From positions 1 through 64,000 of the IMG/VR virus record IMGVR_UViG_3300032770_000007: a stretch of DNA of 64,000 nt. One strand, given 5' to 3'. The translations under genes and the position numbers were made by a program. Positions 8,114 to 48,274 of this stretch are shown one piece after another (position 1 is the stretch's first letter; every line of letters begins with the position of its first letter). Origin of the DNA: a virus. The notes below the pieces were generated by a model that did not search any database, was not told the origin of the DNA, and saw only the letters and a list, made by a program, of their open reading frames with translations.

Positions 8114-8554
8114 GTGTCATTTCAATCTCTTCAACAATATGGTTCTTTTGTCACAACTCCTACAGTTGGTAGATTGTATCATTATGTCTATGATGCTAAA
8201 CTAAAGGATGAACTACCCTATTGGGACAAGTTTCCTCTAGCTTTGATTGCAGATCCTTATCCGGATGGCTGGATCGGCTATAATTTTCATTATGTTCCTC
8301 AAAGAACTCGTAAGGTTATCTTGAATGAATTGTATAAGTACATGGAGTTTGATCCAGTGACTAGAGTTAGATCAAGTTATGGATTTTTGAAACAAATATC
8401 TATCTTCCCTGATATCAAACCTTGTATAAAGAGATATCTGACTTCACATATCAAAAGTAGATTATTTGAGATCAATCCAATAGCCTGGGATGAAATCATT
8501 AAGATGCCTACTGCTAGATGGCAGACTGGTGTGCCATATAGAGGCGCGAAGTAA
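8114..8554 (+). CDS. gp2: DNA end protector gp2
   Basis: GRLYHYVYDAKLKDELPYWDKFPL, GYNFHY, PCIKRYL.SH. Confidence 0.9.
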   Translation: MSFQSLQQYGSFVTTPTVGRLYHYVYDAKLKDELPYWDKFPLALIADPYPDGWIGYNFHYVPQRTRKVILNELYKYMEFDPVTRVRSSYGFLKQISIFPDIKPCIKRYLTSHIKSRLFEINPIAWDEIIKMPTARWQTGVPYRGAK

Positions 8555-12829: not shown

Positions 12830-13777
12830 CTAACCTAGGTCCCTTGCTAACTTCGCGAAAGTTTCGAATTCATCCTCATCAGTAGTTGCAACAGCTTTTG
12901 CTATTTCAGCATCAGCTTCCTGGGCTGTTGGGACATCCTCAGAACTATCCCCCGAAACGTCCTCTGCAGTCCTACGAGCCGCGATTGGACCTGACTCTCC
13001 TACCAACCCAAGCACTCTATCTAACTTCTCTTTAAGTTGTTCATATGTCTTGAATTTCTCAGGAGCCACCTCTGCTTTCAAAGAATAACACTGACGCCAG
13101 ATAGCCTCAATCTTCTTATCATCAGAGAATAGTGGTGATGACTTGTCATCAAAACGTGACTTATCATAGTTACGATAGCCTTCTACCTTACGAATGCTAA
13201 GTTTGAAGTTACCACCTTCCCAAAAGTTGAAAGGATTATAGACCTGATCTTCAGGATCACGATTAACCACATTGCCCTTCTCATCAACTTCCTGATCAAT
13301 AGCAGCCTTGTACTTAATCATGTCCATGATCTTCTTACCATAAGAATAAAGAAAGACCTTCCCTTCATTCTCTGGATGAGCTGCATCCTTCACAACAAGA
13401 ATGTTGCTAATATAACTCAGGCGTCTCTTCTGTTCACGAGCCTTGTCCTGATTGGCCTTGATATTGGTGTTCCATAGCTTGCTATTATACTCACTAACAG
13501 GATCACTCTTACCAAGAGTTGTCAAAGAGTTCTCAATGTAATATTGTCCTGTTGGTCCTTTGAAACCATGATTGAACAACACAACATAAGGTTGCGCATC
13601 ATCACCATCAACAGCAGGAGCATCGAGAAAACGGATAACAGCGAAACCATTACCTGCCTTGTCAACAGTTGGTTGCCAATATCTTTCATCTCTTTGGAAC
13701 TTGGTATTTTGTGCTTCTAGAGTTTTCTGAAGCTTTTCTATGGAAGAATTTTTTCTAAGTTTTGCGAAATCAGTCAT
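12830..13777 (-). CDS. gp32: Single-stranded DNA-binding protein gp32
   Basis: DERYWQPTVDKAGNGFAVIRFL, HGFKGPTGQYYIENSLTTLG..DPV, EGKVFLY.YGKKI, YRNYDKSRF, acidic tail. Confidence 0.97.
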   Translation of the reverse strand: MTDFAKLRKNSSIEKLQKTLEAQNTKFQRDERYWQPTVDKAGNGFAVIRFLDAPAVDGDDAQPYVVLFNHGFKGPTGQYYIENSLTTLGKSDPVSEYNSKLWNTNIKANQDKAREQKRRLSYISNILVVKDAAHPENEGKVFLYSYGKKIMDMIKYKAAIDQEVDEKGNVVNRDPEDQVYNPFNFWEGGNFKLSIRKVEGYRNYDKSRFDDKSSPLFSDDKKIEAIWRQCYSLKAEVAPEKFKTYEQLKEKLDRVLGLVGESGPIAARRTAEDVSGDSSEDVPTAQEADAEIAKAVATTDEDEFETFAKLARDLG

Positions 13778-17428: not shown

Positions 17429-17669
17429 TTCCACCATCTTTTCTTTATTGGACGAGGAGTATATGTACCCAAATTCACTATACACATCATCCTACAAAAG
17501 GGACAACGAAGAGTCACGTAATCAGGCACAGTTCTAGTAGCATTATGAAACTTGCCTTCAGTTCCATGAAAAGTAAACTCAGTAGCACAACAACGGCATT
17601 TACCACGATATTCGTGTTCCCAGGGCAACTTACCTTGTGTGATGATTTTCAAAAGAACTCCATAATAAA

Positions 17670-17920
17670 AGGTGGCGTATGAGTAACAGAGAACACCACC
17701 AGAAACTCTGGATTCAGCTTTAGGCTGCTAGTGCCATTTCTGGCAAATCGAATGCATCATCGTCGTTTGCATTTAACGTTTTGTGCTGCTTAGGGCAGTC
17801 ACCTGTCCGGTAGCCATTGATTTATTCCGCGCCCAATCGAAACCTGGTCATCCCCATATGGTGGAGATGTGGGGAATCGAACCCCAGTCTTGAACGATTT
17901 TAGTCAACAGTTATACTACC
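17670..17920 (-). ncRNA. ssrA: Two-piece (circularly permuted) tmRNA; tag ANDDDAFDLPEMALAA
   Basis: Acceptor piece (TGGGG-TTCGATT-CCCCA, CATCTCC-ACCA ending 17859) precedes the coding piece starting GGGGATG at 17855; G3:U70; tag at 17770-17720; outer ends approximate. Confidence 0.9.
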
Positions 17921-17951
17921 ATCAGAACTATTTAGTTTACTACAAATATCC

Positions 17952-18317: not shown

Positions 18318-19022
18318 TCATAATGTTAGTAACTTATGCTTCATCAAATCACCACGTTCTCTAGCTGGAATAGGCATTGTGGCTACAGCCGTGACCTGAT
18401 TACCTATATCTGGTTCTAAAAATGACCAATACTTCAAACCACGATAATCCAAATCACCTTTCACAGCATTCAAAGCACTATCATCCCTCACGCCAATCAC
18501 CGTGAAATATAAACCATCAGGAGTAACATTCTTCAACTGCACCACATCATCCTTCTGAATGGTAGCTAGTTGATAGCCTGCTTTCAGAGCCACATGCGCC
18601 GCCTGAACTAACTGATAGGCTGGTGGGAGATCCTGTCTAACAAAAATATAAACATAATGTCTCTTGTAGTATTCCTCTACATCAAAATAACTATACACCA
18701 ACCAATGTACCAGTTCTTTGTATATACTTTGATACTTCTCATCCAATGCCTTGAATGGTGCATCAAGGATAGTGTTGAGTACACTAGTATTACAAATAGC
18801 AATGACCAAAGCACCAAAAGGTTTCAATCCATTATCTAACTTGATTTGTCGTTTGATGGGAGTAAATGCTTTTGCCAGGTACTGAACGATAATCTTCTTT
18901 GATTTCTCAATATCTCCATCAGTTGTTTCTAATGCTCTAAGAATAGCATACTGCACGACATGATGGGACTGGATCTGTTTTGTATTGGCCAGATGACGCC
19001 AAAGTTTTCTATAGTCTAACAT
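18318..19022 (-). CDS. Protein with C-terminal peptidyl-tRNA hydrolase 2 (Pth2)-like domain
   Basis: YVYIFVRQDL...QLVQAAHVA...FLEPDIGNQVTAVA; SD AGAGGA before ATG 19022 (ORF-track start 19115 is probably too long). Confidence 0.75.
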   Translation of the reverse strand: MLDYRKLWRHLANTKQIQSHHVVQYAILRALETTDGDIEKSKKIIVQYLAKAFTPIKRQIKLDNGLKPFGALVIAICNTSVLNTILDAPFKALDEKYQSIYKELVHWLVYSYFDVEEYYKRHYVYIFVRQDLPPAYQLVQAAHVALKAGYQLATIQKDDVVQLKNVTPDGLYFTVIGVRDDSALNAVKGDLDYRGLKYWSFLEPDIGNQVTAVATMPIPARERGDLMKHKLLTL

Positions 19023-19035
19023 TTTAGTTCCTCTT

Positions 19036-19137
19036 CTATATTTTGCTTGAAATACCTTCTGCAACATATGAAGAGGATGGAGGACCACGCGCATCATAAC
19101 AAACCTACGTATCAAGAACCTATAGACACAAACTCAT
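19036..19137 (-). promoter_or_regulatory. Leader peptide with two internal TAG codons and RGPP motif overlapping an RBS-sequestering hairpin
   Basis: GGAG-N6-ATG; MSLCL*VLDT*VCYDARGPPSSSYVAEGISSKI*; TCCTCTTC (19077-19070) pairs with GAAGAGGA (19036-19029). Confidence 0.7.
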
Positions 19138-19138
19138 T

Positions 19139-19666
19139 TTATTCTCCAGAATGACTATCATTATTTATATCCTTGTTGGGTAATAGTTCATGAGGATTAA
19201 CTCTTGGTTCTGCAAGAAACTGTTCTTGCGGTACTGATGAATGACCACCATTACCACCATTCAATAATTGACCATGACCAAACTTTCCAAATGTAGGAAT
19301 GCCTTGTTGTCTGGCTGCTTTGGCATCATCCAGTTCTTTGGCTAGTTCTGAAGAAAATGGGACAGAATAAAGTCTTGTTGATTTATCAGAACCTTTACCA
19401 GAAGACTTCATCCACATTTCAATATGCTTTCCTTGACCTTTTATATCAGATATCACGGCATGATCCAAATACTCTACTCTATCCTTGGGCCAATGAGGAT
19501 AGGCTCTACCCATGAGATCAGGGATAGAAAAAGACAAATACAATGCCAATATCAAAGTAAGAGGTATCATGAACCATTTGAGCCAATAACTAACAGGTGT
19601 TCTGATTACGAGATAACCAGCAAACAAAGCAAAACTAGTCAAAAGGATTAGAATAGTATAAATCAT
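19139..19666 (-). CDS. Membrane protein, third gene of a MotA/TolQ-type cassette
   Basis: Two N-terminal TM segments, RLYSVPFS.EL. Confidence 0.6.
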   Translation of the reverse strand: MIYTILILLTSFALFAGYLVIRTPVSYWLKWFMIPLTLILALYLSFSIPDLMGRAYPHWPKDRVEYLDHAVISDIKGQGKHIEMWMKSSGKGSDKSTRLYSVPFSSELAKELDDAKAARQQGIPTFGKFGHGQLLNGGNGGHSSVPQEQFLAEPRVNPHELLPNKDINNDSHSGE

Positions 19667-20796: not shown

Positions 20797-21320
20797 TAAT
20801 GAAATCTCCAGCCTACCAAAATCACGTCTCGACCATAGTTAGGCAACTTTGAACCAGCATCAGAGAAATGAGTATATGTAAGAGTTATTGGCCATTTTCT
20901 AAATCTATAATCAATCTGAAGGTTGGCATTAATATTTCCGCCATTATAAGGTAGATAGTTGGTCATGTAGGCAATACCTATTCCTACATCAACAGGACCA
21001 AAACCATCACAAAACAAACCACGAAAAACTAAATTATTGTTATAATCTAATCCTTTGAATGTGCTTTCACCAATAGCTGTCATGCCAAACTGCCAGAAAG
21101 AATGAGGGACAATATTAGAAGGTTCCATAAATTGCAAATCTAGGACCTCTGTTGGTCCTCTGACTGCGGCGCCACCCAAAGAAAACTGTGCATATGGAAC
21201 ATCAAAAGGACTGGCAGCATGGCATTTATGAAGTGCCAAACCGGCCACAATGAGACCAATGAATACTAAAACTGCTATGGTGCCACTTAGACTAAGATTG
21301 AAAGGAAACTGTATTTTCAT
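20796..21320 (-). CDS. PagL-like lipid A deacylase / outer-membrane beta-barrel
   Basis: Signal peptide; C-terminal YTHFSDAG...PNYGRD.....WRF resembles the PagL H-x-S catalytic region. Confidence 0.6.
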   Translation of the reverse strand: MKIQFPFNLSLSGTIAVLVFIGLIVAGLALHKCHAASPFDVPYAQFSLGGAAVRGPTEVLDLQFMEPSNIVPHSFWQFGMTAIGESTFKGLDYNNNLVFRGLFCDGFGPVDVGIGIAYMTNYLPYNGGNINANLQIDYRFRKWPITLTYTHFSDAGSKLPNYGRDVILVGWRFH

Positions 21321-21552
21321 TCAAATAGTCTCCAAATAATATTACCTATTCCCAATCCAAGCAATGAAGAAAAACAGAATAGACTTATAACAAATGGACC
21401 ATAATACCAAGCATTAGGATTAGGATTGATTACGTGATATAATCCAAACATTGACCAACACCAAACTATGCAACCAGAAAATACCGCAAAAAGAAACTGA
21501 AGAAAATCTTTGAAATGTTTTTGCATTTGATCCTCCAATATATTTAGGATAG

Positions 21553-21624
21553 CGCGCGAGGCGGGATTTGAACCCGCAACCGTGATGTTTAGAGCACCCC
21601 GCTCTGACGTTGAGCTACACGCGC
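21553..21624 (-). tRNA. Amber suppressor tRNA (anticodon CTA), CCA not encoded
   Basis: Cloverleaf: GCTC/GAGC D-stem, loop CT-CTA-AA, GCGGG-TTCAAAT-CCCGC T-arm. Confidence 0.85.
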
Positions 21625-21625
21625 A

Positions 21626-22198
21626 TTATTCACCATACAGAAGCATAATAATATCAAAAGCCGCATCATGAACAGGATCATGCTTTATGACCTGATATTC
21701 ATCAAACTCAGGAATAACACAATAACCTCTGGCTGCTGTTTCTTTTGTCAAGGCCAGAGCTGTTCTGAAATCCATCCAATCCCAATAGTTACAAAGTAAA
21801 GGAATATTAAACTGACGACAAAGATTATCAATAATCATTTGATCCAAAGAACCTCTTTGCCAAAAGGTCTTATGACCATTACAATATTGAGTTAGTTGTT
21901 CTAAACCAGTTCTAACTGGCAAATCTGTATCTGTTCTACGAAGGCTTCTCTTGATAGGAATCTCTGCCTGCTTTTTCCACCACTCCAAGGCATCCTTCTC
22001 TACCTTTCTACCAACAGTAACCTGATTATCAGTATTGAATTTTACAAAACAAGAGTTGGTAAGATACTTCTGATATTTTTCATTGACTGTCAAATCAGCA
22101 TCACGTTCTTTATCAGACAAATCAAATGCTATAGCACCAACACTTAGCACCACAGCATTACTTTCTAATCCAAGAGTTTCAACATCAAAACTAATCAT
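21626..22198 (-). CDS. dexA: DEDDh 3'-5' exonuclease (DexA-like)
   Basis: FDVETLG, WQRGSLD, DFRT, HDPVHDAAFD. Confidence 0.8.
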   Translation of the reverse strand: MISFDVETLGLESNAVVLSVGAIAFDLSDKERDADLTVNEKYQKYLTNSCFVKFNTDNQVTVGRKVEKDALEWWKKQAEIPIKRSLRRTDTDLPVRTGLEQLTQYCNGHKTFWQRGSLDQMIIDNLCRQFNIPLLCNYWDWMDFRTALALTKETAARGYCVIPEFDEYQVIKHDPVHDAAFDIIMLLYGE

Positions 22199-22887
22199 TT
22201 TTTCCTGAACTCCAATAATTTATGAGCATACTCTTTCAACATTTGAAAACACTCATCAGAACTCTTTTGAAAGACTTGTGGAATATTACCATTCTCTATG
22301 GCTACTATAATCACACATTTCTGTGGTCGTTGACCAAACAGTTCCTCATACATTACAGAATAAGCACCTGCTTGACAATAATAACCAGTTATCCAATTTT
22401 CTTTCTTAAACTCTGTTGAAGTCTTGAAATCTATAACAGACAAACAATCACTATAATCAGCTATTACATCAGGAGTACCTGCTAATCGCAGTTTATGTGA
22501 ATATAAAGATTTTTCTATCAATCTAACATTATCTATTCCATTTATGGTTGTTAGAACCTGATTGAATAAATGTTTGGTTAGAGCATCCTGTGGTTCTTCT
22601 AGCTGATTCTGTATATAACCCTCAAGAGTAGAATGTAAAGATTTTCCTCTTTTTGTGGTTGCTCTGGATACAGCCTGAACCTTTTCAATGCCCATATTCT
22701 TTTTCCAGGCAGTAAGTGCCTTATTGGGCAATTCATGTAAAAAAGTAGTTACTGAAGAATAGCGTTGTCCTCCAGGAACCTGATATACTCTCTTGCCATC
22801 TGGAGCAGTAATCTGTTCAAGTTTTGGAACTGTAACAAACTGATGATTGAAAGTCTTATAACTCAAAACTCTCTCTTTGGAGACCAT
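22195..22887 (-). CDS. Cas4-like PD-(D/E)XK exonuclease
   Basis: YSSVTT.L, RG..LH, E..LYS....AG..D.I, IDFKTS, Y.Q..AY..M..E. Confidence 0.85.
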   Translation of the reverse strand: MVSKERVLSYKTFNHQFVTVPKLEQITAPDGKRVYQVPGGQRYSSVTTFLHELPNKALTAWKKNMGIEKVQAVSRATTKRGKSLHSTLEGYIQNQLEEPQDALTKHLFNQVLTTINGIDNVRLIEKSLYSHKLRLAGTPDVIADYSDCLSVIDFKTSTEFKKENWITGYYCQAGAYSVMYEELFGQRPQKCVIIVAIENGNIPQVFQKSSDECFQMLKEYAHKLLEFRKK

Positions 22888-23153
22888 TTAGCATTATCAA
22901 ACATATTCTGAGCACCAGGATAGTTATGCTTGATAGTGTTCAAACGTTCCATGAATCTACCATCAGGAGTTACAGTGCTAACAAACATATGAGCAGGAGC
23001 ATCAACGAAATATCTCTCCAGATAACCTTCATATTTGGCCTTGAACTCATCATAATCTCTAATAGGTAACTCTACCTCTATCACATGACCTTCAGGCCAT
23101 GGCACTGGAAACTCTGGGTGTTGTTTACGAACTATAAAAGTGTATGTAATCAT
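22863..23153 (-). CDS. Hypothetical protein (FmdB-like, usual neighbour of the exonuclease)
   Basis: M.TYTF N-terminus, F.E.L..IK..YPG C-terminus. Confidence 0.45.
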   Translation of the reverse strand: MITYTFIVRKQHPEFPVPWPEGHVIEVELPIRDYDEFKAKYEGYLERYFVDAPAHMFVSTVTPDGRFMERLNTIKHNYPGAQNMFDNAKWSPKREF

Positions 23154-23421
23154 AACTCAACCACTTTCTTTATGGTCAAATTTCCTATCCGTGCTAGATT
23201 GAAATATTTACCAAATGTATGAGGAAATATGTCCTCAACTTCGCATTTCCAATGTCTTGTTGACAATTCATTAGCAATATTGACTATTTCATTGAACTTA
23301 TTACGAAGAAGCATAGCTAAATCTTCATCTGATATTACTGAATATGAAGCCTTTTGACATTCCTTACAAGAGGCTAAATTTCCATGCCGACATACTCCAA
23401 TACCAGCTGCTGAAGCATTGC

Positions 23422-23817
23422 TCATTCAAAATCTCTTCTATAGGTATCAAGACCCAGGCTTTCCTTCACATCAGTTAAAGTCTTGTCATCCATTACAACC
23501 AAGTCATTGTCCTTATCCAGAACAGGGACAGCACCATTATCCAAAGACACTGTTGTAGTCTTAGCAACATACTGAGCATTGTTGCTACGATACATTGGTA
23601 CTTTGACCTTTTCACTATTTACTAGCTTATAGGCTGTTACCTTACGACCCGAACGAACAGACTGGACGTCTGCCTTATAGAGTTTCTTCAACTCATGAAT
23701 ATAAACAGGAACTGAATAATACTTGATTCCAAGTGTTTCAGCAATCTTCTGAACTTCTACTGCTTCCCCCGAAGACAACAGGGTCCATAGTTTATAACTT
23801 TGTATCACCTTTGGCAT
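23422..23817 (-). CDS. Putative winged-HTH DNA-binding protein
   Basis: IAETLGIKYYSVPVYIHELKK...RSGRKVTAYKLVN. Confidence 0.55.
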   Translation of the reverse strand: MPKVIQSYKLWTLLSSGEAVEVQKIAETLGIKYYSVPVYIHELKKLYKADVQSVRSGRKVTAYKLVNSEKVKVPMYRSNNAQYVAKTTTVSLDNGAVPVLDKDNDLVVMDDKTLTDVKESLGLDTYRRDFE

Positions 23818-24394
23818 AAATCAAAACTCCTCAAGAACAGTTAATCAATATTTCAAATATCATTATTGGCGCACTTTGTGCACTTATTATCTGCCTTAGC
23901 AGATGGAACACCAGGACAACCACATTTGGGGCAAATATAGGCCATATTGGTGGATAATATTGTCTTTGCCCAATCAATATCAAAGTTGGTAACTTTGCCT
24001 GGGGGGCAAAGTTCTTCCATAATAGCAACTTTCACATCATTAGCAAGCAATACATCATATGCTTCCCTTAGTAAGTTATGAGCACGTTCAAGACGTTCCT
24101 CAAGGTTTCTGATTTGTATATCACCCCAGCCGCTCAAATCATTTCTTCGACGCCAACTATTCATTCACGATCCTCACATTATTCATATGAATGCTATATT
24201 CCGTCTTGCCTCTAACAAAGAGGTAATAATCATCTAGAGTTCCTCTCAACTCCTTTTCCACAAACACATTGTCTGCTTCAGGAGAAGCAATCCAAGGAGC
24301 AAAAGAGGCTAACTTGGTCAGATCCCTGACCACTCCGGTAGAACCCGGATCTACTTTGAACAACTTCATTATTATACCTCCAATATCTGTAAGA

Positions 24395-24913
24395 CTAAAC
24401 ACGAGGATGAACAGGACACTCTAAATCTTCTCTGATCTCCTTACTATTACAAATACAATCAGGATGTTCTGGAACAATTTCTCCAACCGGTTCTTCTGGT
24501 TCTATTACAAATCCTGACACTTCACAATACCTATCCACAATCAAATCAATCAACTTTGGAGCCCTATATGCAAAATTATCTGGAATGTTTAGAACATAGA
24601 TAGGAACTTCTTTACCCTTGAACTCTTTCAATGCTTTCAAATCATAGGCTCTCTCCAAGATTTTCTTATGGGTCTGTTCCATGCATACGATTTCATCACA
24701 CCATTGCATTAAAACTTCATCAGTCCAGATCAATGCATAATCTTCAACAGCACCAGCAGCCCGAGTATTGAAGTTGAAAGGCGCATTACTCAATACCCAG
24801 GCTGCAGTTGGAGAGCGCAAAATACCACCAGAGCACACACAAAGAACTCTTTTATAATCTTCTGGATGTTGGTATTGATTATGACAAGTAGCTATTCTAT
24901 TCATCATTCCCAT
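24395..24913 (-). CDS. Low-molecular-weight phosphatase (CX5R) family protein
   Basis: VLCVCSGGILRSPTA; LNIPDNF. Confidence 0.8.
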   Translation of the reverse strand: MGMMNRIATCHNQYQHPEDYKRVLCVCSGGILRSPTAAWVLSNAPFNFNTRAAGAVEDYALIWTDEVLMQWCDEIVCMEQTHKKILERAYDLKALKEFKGKEVPIYVLNIPDNFAYRAPKLIDLIVDRYCEVSGFVIEPEEPVGEIVPEHPDCICNSKEIREDLECPVHPRV

Positions 24914-25494
24914 TATAAATCTCCCATTTTATCATGATGTGCACGCACTGGTCTCTGACTGAGAATAGCATCAACTTCTTCCCAGGTCCAGAGAGTCATG
25001 TCACTCTTTGGACGACTATCAATACCCACATCCATGCAACGACCTGGTATACCAGGATGCTGCAGATGCCCATATCTAGAATGAATATGACCATAGAGAT
25101 GATATGACCCATGATGGATCTTGTGCCATTCATACATTGGATAATGAAACAGTACAAGTCTCTTTCCATCAATATTGATTTCTCTATAATCAGCAACAGA
25201 CACAAACTTTGATCTGAGTGTGCTATTACTTTGGATTACCTTGTCATGATTTCCATAAACCAAAAACTTCTGGCCTGGCAGTCTATCCATGATGGCAATA
25301 GCTTCCTCTGCTCGGCAAAAGAACACATCACCAAGCATGTAAACAATATCTTCAGGCTCTACCTGAGATTGCCATTTCTGAATCATTAGAGCATTCATTT
25401 CTTCTACCGTTTCCCCTTGTCGAGTAGTTGGGCAGAACTTACGAATATTCTTATGCCAGAAATGGTTATCAGAAGTGAAATAAATCTTGGACAC
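24913..25494 (-). CDS. Calcineurin-like metallophosphoesterase
   Basis: FTSDNHF.H, LGD, GNHD, HYP, LYGHIH. Confidence 0.9.
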   Translation of the reverse strand: MSKIYFTSDNHFWHKNIRKFCPTTRQGETVEEMNALMIQKWQSQVEPEDIVYMLGDVFFCRAEEAIAIMDRLPGQKFLVYGNHDKVIQSNSTLRSKFVSVADYREINIDGKRLVLFHYPMYEWHKIHHGSYHLYGHIHSRYGHLQHPGIPGRCMDVGIDSRPKSDMTLWTWEEVDAILSQRPVRAHHDKMGDL

Positions 25495-26372
25495 TACTTG
25501 TAAAAATCTCTTATATACTGTAAACGATCTTGCTCATTCATACCAATGAAAAAGTCTTGATTAGTTTTGATATGATCTATCAATGGATAAAACTCTTCAT
25601 CAACTGTAGCTTTTGGATTGACACTATTTAACACATCAAAAAGATTAGTCTTGCGTGCCAAAAACTTAGACACTAGGTAAAAAGGAGACTTCATTTTCAA
25701 AGTCACATCATTACCATAAACAACAATGCCTTCCTTTTTATAGCTCTTCATCCTCTCTATCCAAAATCCAAAAGTCTCTGTATCATCCCATTCTGGTCTA
25801 TTAACCAAAAGCTTATCAGCAATATGATCCAAAGCCTCTTCACTCATCATTTGACCACTACTTAGTCTTCTACCACCAATCAAATATGCATCCTGAACTT
25901 CTGGAATAATATGAGGATCAGCGATATCACAAATCTCAAATATGAATGTATATCCTGGTTCTACTACAATATGATCTAAATGGTTTCTGGCCATCCCAAC
26001 ATATTCACTATCCAAAGAACCTGTGGTTGAAATAATCTGACGCCCATCCTCTAACTTTGTTAGACAGGCCATGAAACCATTAATCTTTGAAACAGCTATT
26101 ACCTTTTCCTTTGGATCTATAGTTGTGTTATTTTCCCCATGATTGAAAATCTTTGTAAAAGGCCACACAACAATGTTGTAATCTTTGTCTACAACCATAC
26201 CTCTCATTTCCATGAGCTCAGGACACCAAAGATTATCATAAAATACTTTGCGCTTGTACTTCAAAACATACAAGTCAGGATAAGTGGTAGATTGATGTCG
26301 AGAAACTAACTTTGGATTGGTTTCTACAAACTTTCTAAGCTCATCAGACGTAAACTTCATACTCTTTTGCAT
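25494..26372 (-). CDS. RNA ligase 1 (RnlA-like)
   Basis: PFTKIFN, KINGF adenylation motif, FIFEI, EGIV, LKMKSPFY. Confidence 0.85.
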   Translation of the reverse strand: MQKSMKFTSDELRKFVETNPKLVSRHQSTTYPDLYVLKYKRKVFYDNLWCPELMEMRGMVVDKDYNIVVWPFTKIFNHGENNTTIDPKEKVIAVSKINGFMACLTKLEDGRQIISTTGSLDSEYVGMARNHLDHIVVEPGYTFIFEICDIADPHIIPEVQDAYLIGGRRLSSGQMMSEEALDHIADKLLVNRPEWDDTETFGFWIERMKSYKKEGIVVYGNDVTLKMKSPFYLVSKFLARKTNLFDVLNSVNPKATVDEEFYPLIDHIKTNQDFFIGMNEQDRLQYIRDFYK

Positions 26373-26802
26373 TTCTATAAGTCACAGGACAATCATCAAT
26401 AAAAGCAGAAAGAACTTCATTTGTAGTGAATCTCTTTCTCATATTTTCTAATACTCTTTCTGGGACATTATGAATGTTACCATACTCTTCTAAACATTCA
26501 ATCATGACTACATCAATATTCAATGCAGCGGCCTTGAGCAAATAAGGTTTTAGTTCTGAATATCTAGTAAAGGTATTACTAACGATTACATCACTACCAT
26601 TTTCAAGTTCAGCATAAGTATTCTCTAGACACCAATCATGAGCCTGACCTATGAATTCCCCCACAAAATAATAGTTACCTTCAACATCAGTGAAGAACTG
26701 GTCTGCCTCAAAATGTTTAGCATTATATTCGTGTGCCAATCTTTTTGCTAATGTACTCTTTCCTGATCCTGGTAATCCTCTAACCAAATATAATGTCATC
26801 AC
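26344..26802 (-). CDS. Polynucleotide kinase-like P-loop protein
   Basis: RGLPGSGKST, EAD, AH.WC, VSNTF, HNVP. Confidence 0.85.
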   Translation of the reverse strand: MMTLYLVRGLPGSGKSTLAKRLAHEYNAKHFEADQFFTDVEGNYYFVGEFIGQAHDWCLENTYAELENGSDVIVSNTFTRYSELKPYLLKAAALNIDVVMIECLEEYGNIHNVPERVLENMRKRFTTNEVLSAFIDDCPVTYRNAKEYEVYV

Positions 26803-26811
26803 ACCACCATC

Positions 26812-27171
26812 CTAATTCAACTTGATTTTGCTATTTGCCAACTCTTCAATATGCTTACCCACACCAATCGGATCTACCTGATATTGTTTAATCAACAACA
26901 TCAGCTGTTCAATCTGCTTATCTTTCAGTTCTAGGGCACCAGTATAACTAGCAGAAAGTCTGTTGATCTTTTCCGCTAATTCATCTGGATCTACAGCGAA
27001 CTGCTTGAATCTACTCAGTTCATTAGTCATGTGCGCAATGTTTGGTACTGCTGTACGCCATTGCACTAATTCAGCAACCATTTCTACTGGAGAAAGTTTT
27101 GATACTTCTATCTTGATTGCTTCTGGTTCAAATAGATTTTCAATATTTGCCTGTTCAACTTCGGTGGTCAT
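26812..27171 (-). CDS. Hypothetical coiled-coil protein
   Basis: ORF in operon orientation. Confidence 0.5.
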   Translation of the reverse strand: MTTEVEQANIENLFEPEAIKIEVSKLSPVEMVAELVQWRTAVPNIAHMTNELSRFKQFAVDPDELAEKINRLSASYTGALELKDKQIEQLMLLIKQYQVDPIGVGKHIEELANSKIKLN

Positions 27172-31010: not shown

Positions 31011-32087
31011 CTAACTCCTATTGATCATATACATGCCAATAGAATGATGATCTTCAAATAACTGTTCACTCATATTATAAAAGTCTGAAATAGGTACCCA
31101 TTTGGCAACTTCAGCATCATCAGATCCCTTGATATAAGGTAAATGTCCTGGACTCATTAGAAGAAACAAACCAGCATGAGTGATAGTACGACCACGTAAT
31201 GATCTACCAGGAGCATCAAAAACATGGGTACTCTTGAGACAAGATTCTAAAACTTCTTCTGAAGCAAGTTGAGTTTCTTCAACCAACTCTCGAATCATTG
31301 AATGTTCTATTGTCTCATTCTGTCCTAAGAAACCACCAGGTAGAGCCCAAAGACCTTTGCCTGGGTGAGAACGTCTTTTGACTAAGAGAATATGCCCATC
31401 ACAAATAACAACAGCATCTGTTGTCACAAAAATGGGAGGATATTTCAATGAAGCGAACTGTGATTTATAGTCATTCAGAAACTTCCATTCCTCACATAAT
31501 GACTTATAGATATCTGAAAATCTGTCTTTCCAGTCATTGATATACTGATTGACCAAAGGAGGAACCAGGTCATCAATAGAAGCTTGGCTATAAAACAGCT
31601 GCTGTCTTACTTCTGTTCCAGAGGTAAAATGAGCCTGCTTGATTTCATGGAAGTCATACTGTGGGAACATATTCAGATAATATGAACTTTCATCTTTATA
31701 ATGACCCACAATCACCACTCTGGCTTCTTGCTTAGTTTTAATGAATGGCCAGAGCTCTTTATTTATGGCCTGTTGAACTTCTGCTACCCAGCGCTGATCA
31801 TTGTACAGATCATCCACAATAGGAGCATAATGAAATACCTTATCCAAAGGAGTTACTGCTCGTTCAATCATAGCAACTCTTTCATCATATGAAAAAGGAT
31901 TTTTAATATCTCGAGCAATCCAAGAAGAACCAACTAAAATCAAACGATGTTTGGCTATCTTGCCTGCTGCTGTAAATAGTTTCATATGTCCTAAATGGAC
32001 AGGCTGAAACCGACCAATCACCACAGCAAGGTCTGCTTGTGGCAACTCAATAGTCTTATCTGACCAAGATTTTGATTTAGATTTCAT
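31011..32087 (-). CDS. nadM: Bifunctional NMN adenylyltransferase / Nudix hydrolase
   Basis: GRFQPVHLGH, NPF...ER, Nudix box PGGF...E.......REL.EET. Confidence 0.93.
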   Translation of the reverse strand: MKSKSKSWSDKTIELPQADLAVVIGRFQPVHLGHMKLFTAAGKIAKHRLILVGSSWIARDIKNPFSYDERVAMIERAVTPLDKVFHYAPIVDDLYNDQRWVAEVQQAINKELWPFIKTKQEARVVIVGHYKDESSYYLNMFPQYDFHEIKQAHFTSGTEVRQQLFYSQASIDDLVPPLVNQYINDWKDRFSDIYKSLCEEWKFLNDYKSQFASLKYPPIFVTTDAVVICDGHILLVKRRSHPGKGLWALPGGFLGQNETIEHSMIRELVEETQLASEEVLESCLKSTHVFDAPGRSLRGRTITHAGLFLLMSPGHLPYIKGSDDAEVAKWVPISDFYNMSEQLFEDHHSIGMYMINRS

Positions 32088-33008: not shown

Positions 33009-33311
33009 TTGAGCTCCTTAATGTTCATATCTAACATTTCCTTCAAATACTTCATAGCCAAGTCCAAATATCTATGTTGTTCTCTTGTCAGCATTATATT
33101 TGAGGCATCAATTTGTTCAATATAGTTTTGTACATTGCGCAACCTGTCTCTAAACTGTCCAGAATCTTTTATGAGTTCTTCTGCCCAGGCCTGAACTTTT
33201 TTCTTAAAATCATTTTCCATAATGTCTCCTGGTGCCAGTACACAGACTTGCACTGTGATTTCTTGCTTACGAAACAAGTGTTCTGCTACTTGAACCATAC
33301 TGGCCAATATT

Positions 33312-39050: not shown

Positions 39051-39476
39051 TTAGGATGGATTATCTGGAAGAATGGCATCTTTTTGAATTTCTTGCCACA
39101 AATCTTCATCATTTTTGACTTCAACCTTGATGTTTTGAAGTTCTCTTTGGACCTTTTCATCAATAGCAGCCTGCTGTCCGGAACGACGGCGAAACTCCAT
39201 TTGTCTCCAGTCCTCAAACTCTTTAGTCTTAGTCATGCGCACAAAGGCCATTTGTCTGTTCTGTCTTTGAGAACGTGTGTCCTCAGCATAACCACGAGCA
39301 CCTGAAGGAGGATGCTTGCAATGCACTGCTGATGATGTTTTATTTTTCGCCTGACCACCATGGCCAGTCCCTCTTGTATAAGACCACTCACAATCTTTGG
39401 CTGTGACTGAAAACAGAAGTCTACGGGATTCAACTATATTACCTGGCTTTAAATTTTTTATGTTTATTGAGCTCAT
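39051..39476 (-). CDS. GGQ peptidyl-tRNA hydrolysis domain protein (RF-1/ArfB-like)
   Basis: RGTGHGGQAKNKTSSAVHCKH.PSG......RSQ.QNR..AF. Confidence 0.85.
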   Translation of the reverse strand: MSSINIKNLKPGNIVESRRLLFSVTAKDCEWSYTRGTGHGGQAKNKTSSAVHCKHPPSGARGYAEDTRSQRQNRQMAFVRMTKTKEFEDWRQMEFRRRSGQQAAIDEKVQRELQNIKVEVKNDEDLWQEIQKDAILPDNPS

Positions 39477-40045: not shown

Positions 40046-40121
40046 TGGAACCCCCGACAGGACTCAAACCTGCATTTACCTGGTTCGTAGCCAGGGCCGT
40101 ATTCATTCCGGTCACGAGGGC
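40046..40121 (-). tRNA. tRNA-Arg(ACG)
   Basis: Loop CT-ACG-AA, CCA encoded. Confidence 0.9.
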
Positions 40122-40704: not shown

Positions 40705-40814
40705 TCAATATTTAGGGTTTCAAACTACCTCTTGTTCAATGAGGATCGCCTGCCAGCGACTATACAACACATAGGTGGCAGCCAGGATAAGTTGTATTAG
40801 AGTTTGAAACATTC

Positions 40815-40888
40815 TGGTAGTGAAGGATGGTTATGCTCCATCGTCTATGGCTTATGAAACCACCGCTCTCCTATTGAGCTACTTCACC
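40815..40888 (-). tRNA. tRNA-Met/Ile2(CAT), elongator type
   Basis: Loop TT-CAT-AA; T-loop AGCATAA. Confidence 0.85.
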
Positions 40889-40893
40889 AAATT

Positions 40894-40970
40894 TGGTGCC
40901 TCCACCAGGATTTGAACCCGGACCCTACCGCTTAAAAGGCGGAGCTCTATCACACTTGAGTTATGGAGGC
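40894..40970 (-). tRNA. tRNA-Lys(TTT)
   Basis: Loop CT-TTT-AA, CCA. Confidence 0.9.
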
Positions 40971-40976
40971 ATGAAT

Positions 40977-41052
40977 TGGTAGGTCCAGTCGGAACTGCCC
41001 CGACATCCAACACTTTAAGAGAGTGAGCTCTATCTGATTGAGTTATGGACCT
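40977..41052 (-). tRNA. tRNA-Lys(CTT)
   Basis: Loop CT-CTT-AA, CCA. Confidence 0.85.
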
Positions 41053-41057
41053 GAAAA

Positions 41058-41136
41058 TGGTGCGCGGATGTGGAATCGAACCACATTCTCAACTTCTTCA
41101 GAGTTGCGCTGATGTCACCAGACTAGCTCTCCACGC
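41058..41136 (-). tRNA. tRNA-Phe(GAA)
   Basis: Loop CT-GAA-GA, CCA. Confidence 0.85.
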
Positions 41137-45108: not shown

Positions 45109-45183
45109 TGGCGACCCCAGATGGATTTGAACCACCACACGCAGTTTTGGAGACTGCAGTCCTGCCAGTTAGACGATGGAGCC
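45109..45183 (-). tRNA. tRNA-Trp(CCA)
   Basis: Loop CT-CCA-AA, G73. Confidence 0.9.
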
Positions 45184-47503: not shown

Positions 47504-47578
47504 TGGTGCCTCATCTCAGACTTGCGCTGAGTTCTGCGGCTTACAAAACCGCTGCATCGCTATCTATGCTTATGAGGC
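47504..47578 (-). tRNA. tRNA-Thr(TGT)
   Basis: Loop TT-TGT-AA. Confidence 0.9.
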
Positions 47579-47582
47579 GAAA

Positions 47583-47992
47583 TAGTGCGGTAGCAATCCA
47601 TGGGGCACAACCACTTCTAACGCTACCGGAATCTGTGCCATCTACCATTATAACTAATAATCAACAATGTATAATCATAGACTGTGAGTTTCCTGCCTGA
47701 CTCGGACATTCGGCAAGTCATGGAGTTATTTCCACTTATACACGCGACTATGGGAAAAACATTTTTTTTCAAATCAACTGCTAGGAGATACATTTTTCCA
47801 ATAACCTCGGCAGTCAATGGTCTCCATGAAAAAAGGTAGAGACCAACCCCAAAATGCTTCTGTTTTCAGTGGAGCACTAATAGGCTTACCCACGTGGCTG
47901 GCACAACAGGTTGCTACCTCTGTTGTGAGTTCCATGCTGGCTTCCGGTTTCGGTTGATGTCCCTAGTGCGGTTGAACCAACATCCCAATCAA
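47583..47992 (-). ncRNA. Unassigned ~410-nt structured RNA heading the tRNA operon
   Basis: Consecutive hairpins, two loop-complementary pairings, no credible ORF, directly after an early promoter. Confidence 0.55.
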
Positions 47993-47999
47993 GAGACCT

Positions 48000-48028
48000 A
48001 TTATAGGTCTAATCATTCAAAAAGTAAA
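48000..48028 (-). promoter_or_regulatory. Early promoter TTTACT-N17-TATAAT for the ncRNA/tRNA operon (tandem N16 copy at 48064-48091)
   Basis: Same -35/-10 as the other copies. Confidence 0.7.
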
Positions 48029-48274
48029 GTATAATATTGTCTCCTTCAACTTCAAGAAGGCATATTATACGTCAAAAATCTACTAAGTAAAGCTTATTTA
48101 GCCCAACAATATCAATCAGTTATACAATATCAAAACAAGTTATTGATTTTCAATCAAATATAGTCTGCTGCTGTTTCGGCCATCTGGATTTTATGGCCTT
48201 GCGATAAGTTCAAAGTATCGCAACTCTTGAAAGCGAGAGGCACGCAGCAACTCCTTGGTGTTTATTTAGCTGGC

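Follow-up and report, generated by a model that had tools for sequence, protein, structure and literature searches.

A CUA tRNA gene in a T4-like phage

The window analysed here, 64,000 nucleotides (nt) long, comprises the first 64 kb of the IMG/VR virus record IMGVR_UViG_3300032770_000007 (designated G000; 125,827 bp, estimated 69% complete, 37.7% G+C), and contains on its minus strand a tRNA gene with the amber-suppressor type anticodon CUA. The gene sits between two co-directional genes: upstream, a dexA-like exonuclease gene terminates with TAA 1 nt short of the tRNA, and downstream the next open reading frame (ORF) follows at a distance of 13-26 nt. G000 is T4-like, as it contains gp25, a gp5-type lysozyme, baseplate proteins, gp32, gp59 and a late-transcription coactivator. 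A comparison of one conserved phosphoesterase places phages of Ralstonia, Variovorax and Acidovorax as its closest cultured relatives; given the hosts of these relatives and the presence of a permuted transfer-messenger RNA (tmRNA) of the beta-proteobacterial type, the host is probably a beta-proteobacterium. A megablast comparison of the 3 kb surrounding the tRNA with cultured phages yielded no match.

ARAGORN reports 29 RNA genes in the window, one of which is a 73-nt tRNA with the anticodon cta at 21552-21624 on the minus strand. The Rfam model RF00005 matches 21553-21624 over its full length (model positions 1-71) at 53.9 bits, compared with a gathering score of 29 and with a window-wide E-value of 8.6e-9; this score ranks 11th-12th among the 23 tRNA matches of the window and exceeds those of 11 of the 22 others. 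Our own model, R1, assigns the gene 81.6 bits. In the ARAGORN cloverleaf the acceptor stem GCGCGUG/CUCGCGC includes a U6.U67 mismatch, the D-stem GCUC/GAGC closes a 7-nt D-loop (AACGUCA) without the GG pair, and the anticodon stem consists of four standard pairs with an unpaired G27.A43 above them. The anticodon loop C32-U33-CUA-A37-A38 (CUCUAAA) places CUA at the centre of 7 nt, with U33 and a purine at position 37 present, and the molecule is completed by a 5-nt variable loop, the T-arm GCGGG-UUCAAAU-CCCGC and the discriminator G73. The stretch 21553-21624 is a genuine tRNA gene with a suppressor-type anticodon. An earlier note on this DNA had described a good cloverleaf with the loop CT-CTA-AA and proposed a program call as a check; ARAGORN and Rfam both bear out this description, albeit with irregularities at 6:67, at 27:43 and in the D-loop.

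ARAGORN names every CTA tRNA 'Pyl'. tRNA-Pyl is built with a 3-nt variable loop, a 6-bp anticodon stem and a very short D-loop; the label was rejected for the window tRNA, the build of which differs in its 5-nt variable loop, its four standard pairs plus G.A and its 7-nt D-loop.

Within the genome the gene is isolated. By the ARAGORN calls, the next tRNA lies at 33,230 (11.6 kb away) and a dense array begins at 40,046, a distance of 18.4 kb that agrees with the 18 kb of the earlier note. No paralog of the CUA tRNA was found in the phage, the highest identity being 73% (Leu-taa). ARAGORN and Rfam differ over several other tRNAs of the window, at 40770-41136 and 47507-47578: minus-strand tRNAs at 40818-40888, 40980-41052 and 47507-47578 are reported by Rfam and absent from the ARAGORN list, while ARAGORN calls a plus-strand Phe tRNA at 40770-40851, lacking CCA, that overlaps one of these.

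Conservation, ancestry and predicted charging

An alignment of dexA homologs recovered 80 IMG/VR and 80 metagenome loci, and an alignment of the phosphoesterase 41 more; dexA as a single-protein query for close relatives returned 0 matches, such that an alignment query was needed. With ARAGORN a single tRNA was detected among the first 80 dexA loci and none among the other 80, while three of the 41 phosphoesterase loci contained CTA tRNAs; the program missed the suppressor tRNA of G004 (locus L094), which was found by Rfam. A covariance model was then built from five sequences and all loci were rescanned, and no additional cases emerged from the 160 dexA loci. The clade shares a gene order running from a kinase through an RNA ligase, a metallophosphoesterase, small ORFs, a PD-(D/E)XK nuclease and dexA to the tRNA, where present, and on to a homolog of the gene at 18318..19115 (w18318), a permuted tmRNA and an IMP dehydrogenase/GMP reductase. 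Four phages, namely the window phage, G001, G003 and G004, carry the tRNA between dexA and the w18318 homolog, and although their dexA proteins are only ~41-50% identical, the gene order is shared among them. As in the window, the suppressor tRNA of G003 stands alone, ~18 kb from the main tRNA array. The locus of a sixth member of the clade (L095/L299) ends 96 nt past dexA. The G004 tRNA displays a non-canonical T-loop, CACUCAA instead of UUCRANY.

The anticodon loop CUCUAAA is identical in all four carriers and in the more distant locus L333. When the tRNAs of the window, G003, G001 and L333 are aligned, 12 of 21 pairs have changed on both sides and 92.7% of cells remain paired, an outcome reached by 0 of 500 shuffles. 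Such a count of compensatory changes would be high for any set of tRNAs, and the weight of the comparison therefore rests on the anticodon staying the same at an unchanged position. The anticodon stem has diverged at each of its four standard pairs between the window and G003 without loss of pairing. The random anticodons that the earlier note had named as a mark of pseudogene drift are not seen, CUCUAAA being present in all four positional homologs, and the comparison indicates that a CUA tRNA at this slot is conserved and not a product of drift. Exact-pattern scans of IMG/VR, from which the window's own record may be left out, returned 0 matches for the window anticodon arm plus T-arm and 0 for the D-arm, and for the 3' half common to the window and G003 returned the G003 contig only.

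The ancestry of the tRNA is best seen by way of G003. The two tRNAs agree in G73, in the T-stem and in the whole acceptor stem with its U6.U67 mismatch and, with the anticodon masked, are each other's best match among 141 tRNAs (0.82 versus 0.73 for the next). The G003 tRNA is in turn 89.1% identical over 63 nt to the tRNA-Trp(CCA) of Caulobacter jumbo phages (E 7e-13; 59/72 with the anticodon masked), in which the anticodon loop is CUCCAAA. The window tRNA itself matches tRNA-Trp at 74.6% over 61 nt (E 0.2; 49/71 with the anticodon masked), and its membership in the Trp group follows from its orthology with G003. As judged by these alignments, the suppressor lineage of the window phage and G003 goes back to a Trp-type tRNA in which a single anticodon change turned CCA into CUA. 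The tRNA-Trp(CCA) that the phage itself encodes at 45112-45183 shows no sequence relationship to the CUA tRNA (35/70), which is therefore not a recent duplicate.

Two other origins were considered and rejected. The exact frame of acceptor, D and T stems found 0 matches in 185,579 bacterial species genomes; a donor search with pair 6:67 left free returned 30 loci, and the 29 typed by ARAGORN were all tRNA-Arg(CCG/TCG), mostly of Gemmatimonadaceae. This likeness to tRNA-Arg is confined to the stems specified in the query, and the remaining body fits tRNA-Trp far better. The tRNA-Lys(UUU) of G002, a complete relative, scores 76 bits with model R1; however, when the anticodon is masked, Arg, Thr, Asn, Lys and Trp tRNAs tie at 0.69-0.71, and similarity within the phages' own tRNA sets thus cannot assign the origin.

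With regard to charging, the discriminator G73, a bacterial Trp identity element, is present in the window and G003 tRNAs, while A73 is found in G001 and U73 in G004. In E. coli the identity of tRNA-Trp is reported to reside in G73 and the anticodon CCA, with the CUA version charged by GlnRS, and A73 together with U35 is reported to draw LysRS (PMC2965240). If this E. coli precedent carries over, Gln would be the residue inserted by the window and G003 tRNAs, and Lys perhaps that inserted by the G001 tRNA.

An encoded CCA ends 25 of the 27 other ARAGORN tRNA calls in the genome. Unlike these, and as the earlier note had observed, the CUA tRNA carries CTA after G73. That note had further suggested that the resulting need for CCA addition could serve as a control point, a suggestion that did not hold up: the G001 and G003 orthologs both encode CCA, one substitution away, so the loss is not a conserved control point, and among the matches listed 41 of 110 unique phage CTA tRNA sequences from IMG/VR lack an encoded CCA while 69 have one. 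On this comparison the CCA-less state is recent and particular to the window phage, not a designed control point. To our knowledge a CCA-adding enzyme is present in any bacterial host.

Position 27:43 is without a standard pair in the window, G003 and G001 tRNAs. A tRNA-Thr(CUA) with G27-A43 is reported to read UAG better than its own variant with five base pairs (PMC13092985). The state in which only 27:43 is unpaired is also found in 15 of 107 phage CTA tRNAs and one of the 27 other tRNAs of the phage, and is not specific; as a sign of efficient UAG reading it would carry little weight. By analogy, the anticodon loop and stem as a whole would fit efficient reading of UAG.

Genetic code and neighbouring genes

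Coding density was assessed from ORFs of >=60 amino acids (aa) under code 11 and with TAG, TGA or TAA read through, a comparison of code 11 with code 15 having been proposed in the earlier note. In G000, ORFs cover 90.7% of the sequence under code 11 and 91.8% with TAG read through, compared with 91.2% and 89.6% for the TGA and TAA controls. Because the G000 record is incomplete, the test was repeated on the near-complete G003 (98% complete; 0.920 under code 11 versus 0.927 with TAG read through) and the complete G004 (100%; 0.913 versus 0.936). The gain from reading TAG as sense, 0.7-2.3 points, is similar to that of the TGA and TAA controls. In a rougher test on 76 IMG/VR suppressor loci longer than 2 kb, a gain in ORF cover of more than 15 points was seen in 12 loci for TAG and in 11 for TGA, which is no excess by this lenient measure.

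Consistent with these densities, TAG remains in use as a stop. It ends 20 of 190 ORFs in G000, 9 of 50 in G001, 34 of 244 in G003 and 26 of 249 in G004 (10-18%), while in G002, which lacks the suppressor, it stands at 24 of 243 stops (9.9%); carriers, by comparison with this suppressor-free relative, have therefore not cut their use of TAG. The genes ending in TAG include those for gp32 (12830-13777), a NadM-like protein (31011-32087) and an RNA ligase (25494-26372), the three examples given by the earlier note, the view of which, that the phage is not recoded and its core genes read intact in code 11, is upheld. When G000 was searched for domains of release factors (PCRF), of GlnRS/GluRS-type synthetases and of CCA-adding enzymes, none was found. 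None of the carrier genomes is TAG-recoded.

The features of the locus and their counterparts in relatives are collected in Table 1. The ORFs upstream of the tRNA overlap or adjoin within 35 nt as far as 27171, and the CUA tRNA would therefore most simply belong to one long transcript. This block encodes a PD-(D/E)XK nuclease, small ORFs, a metallophosphoesterase, an Rnl1-like RNA ligase and an AAA_33/polynucleotide-kinase-like kinase. Promoter-like sites around the CUA tRNA number 14 versus 16.5 expected, and are thus not above chance. The small ORF downstream of the tRNA has no Pfam or PHROG match. A putative RNA-repair trio is discernible at 24913-26802 on the minus strand, consisting of the kinase (26344-26802), the Rnl1-type RNA ligase (25494-26372) and the metallophosphoesterase (24913-25494), and is kept in relatives at 46-70% identity.

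Table 1. Features of the window around the CUA tRNA gene, and suppressor tRNA and tmRNA genes of related phages
Feature	Position	Strand	Basis and remarks
tRNA gene, anticodon CUA (amber suppressor type), Trp-derived body, G73	21553..21624	-	ARAGORN, Rfam RF00005, own model R1, G003 ortholog
3' trailer CTA; orthologs encode CCA	21550..21552	-	Sequence; alignment with L308 and L018, both CCA
dexA-like 3'-5' exonuclease gene	21626..22198	-	Pfam PF16473, 3.8e-15; ~30% identity to DexA/exonuclease A of cultured T4-like phages
Small downstream ORF, 73 aa from TTG; ATG at 21526 after GGAGGA motif	21317..21538	-	ORF list, sequence
Tightly packed co-directional block upstream of the tRNA	22195..27171	-	Gaps of -29 to +35 nt between ORFs; Pfam; tblastn synteny in relatives
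Gene of unknown function (w18318) between suppressor tRNA and tmRNA, conserved in all four phages	18318..19115	-	tblastn; only phrog_1866, unknown function
Permuted tmRNA, 3.6 kb downstream of the suppressor	17629..17951	-	ARAGORN; RF04321, 142.1 bits
Stand-alone RF-1 (GGQ) domain protein, 141 aa, no codon-recognition domain	39051-39476	-	Pfam 3.1e-14; phrog_3122
G001 suppressor tRNA	L018 5595-5667		3 nt past dexA stop (TAG in G001); 71.8 bits, A73, encoded CCA
G003 suppressor tRNA	L308 13031-13104		3.9 kb past dexA, after nuclease gene; 49.6 bits (Rfam), G73, encoded CCA
G004 suppressor tRNA	L094 7305-7378 (= G004 8268-8341)		0.7 kb past dexA; Rfam 37.7 bits, U73
tmRNA in relatives	L173 9452-9731; L094 9904-10184; L308 14939-15167; G006 47970-48258		Permuted type

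The second RNA gene of the locus is a permuted tmRNA of the two-piece type, the tag of which, ANDDDAFDLPEMALAA, ends in TAA. ARAGORN missed the permuted tmRNAs of G001, G003 and G004 and called that of G006. In four phages the tmRNA directly follows the w18318 homolog, and in all four carriers this homolog separates it from the suppressor, which is encoded on the same strand 1.4-3.6 kb upstream. The syntenic locus L093 keeps the w18318 homolog and has neither RNA, an arrangement that would take two separate deletions. In the complete relative G006 the tmRNA is located inside the tRNA array, and no CUA tRNA is found among the tRNAs typed; G002 has neither suppressor tRNA nor tmRNA. No tmRNA above cut-off was detected in three cultured phages bearing genes labelled Sup-CTA or in Caulobacter phage RB23, from which a tRNA-Trp was taken; in Aeromonas phage Akh-2 the best match to the tmRNA model anywhere in the genome is its suppressor tRNA, below threshold. 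The stand-alone GGQ protein resembles ArfB and PrfH, falling below both curated cut-offs, and possibly constitutes, together with the tmRNA, two ribosome-rescue parts of the phage.

Competing explanations and comparison with known suppressor tRNAs

The reading that we favour, with moderate confidence, is that the window encodes an amber-suppressor tRNA that is functional and vertically conserved in a T4-like phage using the standard code, descended from tRNA-Trp and predicted to give partial, genome-wide read-through of UAG. It would most likely be neither a recoding device nor a one-gene switch, and instead an ordinary suppressor competing with release factor 1 (RF1) at all UAG codons. For its expression, processing, charging and decoding, and for any benefit to the phage, we infer the following course. 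The CUA tRNA would be transcribed at the end of the packed nuclease/RNA-repair gene block, after which RNase P would release the 5' end and the 3' end would be trimmed; the host CCA-adding enzyme would complete the latter, the encoded CCA being spoiled by one substitution; a host synthetase, GlnRS by the precedent of E. coli tRNA-Trp(CUA) with G73, would charge it; and the charged tRNA would compete with RF1 at UAG, such that host and phage stops alike would be partially read through.

Several observations weigh against this reading. The gene is dispensable, as in the 12.5 kb of L093 dexA is followed within ~60 nt by the w18318 homolog with no tRNA, and of the 160 more distantly related dexA loci just two carry it. 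With the anticodon masked, the G001 and G004 tRNAs are no nearer that of the window than are ordinary Arg, Thr, Asn and Lys tRNAs, their discriminators differ (A73 and U73), and position alone speaks for their common descent with it. The Gln assignment would be a carry-over from E. coli, and the acceptor stem, with G1:C72 and C2:G71, presumably fits neither the Gln nor the Trp set of that species. TAG is used freely, even on gp32, and without extra back-up stops, which would be awkward if suppression were efficient. The window D-loop AACGUCA differs from the AACUUGGCUA of G003 by the loss of 3 nt, among them a G of the GG pair, and the trailer CTA is one substitution (C to T) from the CCA of G003; with these two derived defects the window copy may work less well or be decaying. 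Finally, no RNA runs were listed among those containing this DNA, the single run found being wetland metagenome DNA that is likely the source of the contig.

The earlier note had seen in the gene a regulatory suppressor rather than a recoding tRNA. A suppressor-type tRNA in a non-recoded phage is indeed what the data describe; the regulatory part of the proposal, according to which the tRNA would extend or couple particular phage proteins at chosen UAGs, is one that we consider quite unlikely. Reading through TAG in G000 merges only two ORF pairs in frame (119 aa + TAG + 155 codons; 319 aa + TAG + 98 codons). The former joins a 119-aa ORF (26812-27171) to the polynucleotide-kinase-like gene, yet in G001 the two are in different frames, with a TAA stop and an ATG start; the latter consists of two ORFs that have their own start codon. 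None of 36 TAG-ended ORFs with extensions of >=30 codons in G000, G002, G003 and G004 has an extension matching the protein of its upstream part, stop identity is not conserved (among seven window genes that end in TAG and have a G001 ortholog, the ortholog also uses TAG in two cases), and the distance to the next different stop does not differ between TAG-ended and other ORFs (p = 0.85). No conserved coding extension past a leaky stop, as in programmed read-through of the Q-beta A1 type, was encountered in these tests. The other candidate target is the leader at ~19137-19022 on the minus strand, which does lie 2.4 kb downstream of the tRNA, co-directional with it and with three TAGs in one frame, as had been claimed; the frame itself is not conserved, however, since in L308 the TAGs are spread over more than one frame and L094 lacks one of them, and another frame is open across the leader (ORF 18318-19115). 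Conservation instead concerns the nucleotide sequence of the stretch 19022-19170 (minus strand), GGTTCYTGAYAC...GCRCGWGGTCCKCC, which precedes the w18318 homolog in the window, L094 and L308. Only three TATAAATA motifs occur on the gene strand of the whole record, one of which precedes the leader in the window; a canonical sigma-70 promoter at the leader was considered and rejected, the spacer as read by eye being ~11 nt. TAG stops are also concentrated at 12.8-46.1 kb (12830-46145), the part with accessory genes and tRNAs (13/65 ORFs versus 7/125 elsewhere; Fisher p = 0.005), a bias that would suit regulation but that we ascribe to the tendency of highly expressed genes to avoid TAG, reported as a general pattern (PMC8954436).

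That the tRNA is an evolutionary way-station, a near-neutral or mildly useful step toward, or relic of, TAG-to-Gln recoding that tolerates amber mutations and has no role of its own today, seems to us improbable. The gain of a suppressor has been placed before recoding (Borges et al., 10.1101/2021.08.26.457843), and Gln, the predicted residue of a Trp-type CUA/G73 tRNA, is that of phage code 15; however, the model expects depletion of TAG first, whereas TAG is no rarer in carriers than in G002, and persistence with compensatory changes across phages whose proteins are ~40-70% identical argues for selection. A similarly low probability is given to decay, that is, to a suppressor that once worked in the lineage and is being lost in the window copy. 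The loss of the canonical GG D-loop and of the encoded CCA relative to G003, as well as the absence of the whole gene from L093, would be expected in this case, yet the four helices have all been preserved, the anticodon loop has not altered, the anticodon stem remains complementary despite changes at four pairs, the Rfam score exceeds that of G003, and CCA-less genes are common among phage CTA tRNAs. It is conceivable, though doubtful to much the same degree as a one-gene switch, that suppressor and tmRNA act as a pair, in which the suppressor would push ribosomes through mostly host UAGs for the purpose of shut-off or counter-defence and the tmRNA, perhaps with the GGQ protein, would clear the stalled ribosomes and tag their products. 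The proximity of the two RNAs in all four carriers and their joint absence from L093 fit such a pairing, whereas G006 with its tmRNA and the cultured suppressor phages without one do not; the association is confined to this clade and may reflect no more than shared ancestry. Least probable of all would be a non-decoding role, either as a cutting mark for RNase P and RNase Z between the dexA message and the downstream genes or as a decoy for a host anticodon nuclease. The wedged position of the gene between co-directional ORFs and the RNA-repair genes 3-5 kb upstream would suit such a role; a cutting mark, however, needs no set anticodon, yet CUCUAAA is constant in four homologs while the stems drift, and no anticodon nuclease directed against CUA tRNAs, which host cells normally lack, is known to us.

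The preferred reading, that of an ordinary suppressor, bears on the question of why phages with the ordinary code carry stop-reading tRNAs. While the case does not reveal the function of the tRNA, it adds clade-level evidence in the form of an anticodon that stays constant while the stems change, a clear ancestry (tRNA-Trp with one anticodon change) that predicts the residue inserted, two complete or near-complete carrier genomes without recoding, and a fixed genomic slot near a phage tmRNA. Of practical value are the natural variants that it offers for comparison in an amber reporter, which differ in whether CCA is encoded, in whether the D-loop retains GG, and in the discriminator (G73, A73 or U73).

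Suppressor tRNAs have been noted in phages before. The Xanthomonas jumbo phage XacN1, which uses the standard code, encodes two CUA tRNAs, and in-silico read-through of 18 of its amber stops pointed to no target (PMC5852040), the same negative outcome as for the window phage. A suppressor tRNA whose role is not known is discussed in a Klebsiella phage paper (PMC8386662), a TGA suppressor has been reported in a phage with the standard code (Borges et al., 10.1101/2021.08.26.457843), and the main text of Morgado & Vicente (2019) makes no mention of suppressors. Such genes are annotated in many genomes, and their GenBank labels include Sup-CTA, Pyl, TERM and OTHER. In IMG/VR at least 115 loci with CTA tRNAs fit one narrow pattern (110 unique sequences), 32 of the 115, among the matches listed, having another tRNA within 1.2 kb.

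Cultured phages with genes labelled Sup-CTA, namely XacN1, Aeromonas phage Akh-2, Yersinia fHe-Yen9-04, Pectobacterium CBB, Serratia BF and Erwinia pEa_SNUABM, resemble the window phage in combining a well-formed CUA tRNA with the use of TAG as a stop. The G001 tRNA is 77-83% identical to the Sup-CTA genes of the Aeromonas, Yersinia, Serratia, Erwinia and Pectobacterium phages, in which the same loop CUCUAAA is found, whereas the window tRNA has no significant match among the cultured Sup-CTA genes. Its setting and body differ as well: the suppressors of Akh-2 and CBB lie inside or beside tRNA arrays, while that of the window is solitary, occupying a conserved slot past dexA at 11.6-18 kb from the array, and the cultured tRNAs bear A73 in place of the Trp-type body with G73. 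The Akh-2 gene (L175 2497-2568), as read from its sequence, has a G3:U70 pair together with A73, and by the AlaRS identity rule as we understand it would presumably insert alanine.

A parallel to the proposed origin is an amber suppressor derived from E. coli tRNA-Trp, which we take to be su+7; it is a laboratory mutant allele of a cellular gene, whereas that of the window is a natural, conserved phage gene. Both show the same single change, CCA to CUA, on a G73 body, and the E. coli molecule is reported to be charged by GlnRS and no longer recognised by TrpRS (PMC2965240). Given the acceptor stem GCGCGUG with U6.U67 and a host other than E. coli, a likeness in charging would be by analogy only. 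The code 15 phages (crAss-like and Lak phages) likewise encode a CUA tRNA presumed to be charged by host GlnRS (10.1101/2021.08.26.457843); they differ in having in-frame TAG in late and lysis genes and, in some cases, release factors, whereas none of this is seen in the carriers G003 and G004 and no PCRF domain occurs in G000. The tRNA-Thr(CUA) with a natural G27-A43 (PMC13092985) shares with the window tRNA this G27.A43 over four standard pairs and the anticodon CUA, which in that case was engineered onto E. coli tRNA-Thr and here belongs to a natural gene. Taken together, these comparisons place the window tRNA among the suppressor tRNAs already annotated and published in standard-code phages, to which it adds another case.

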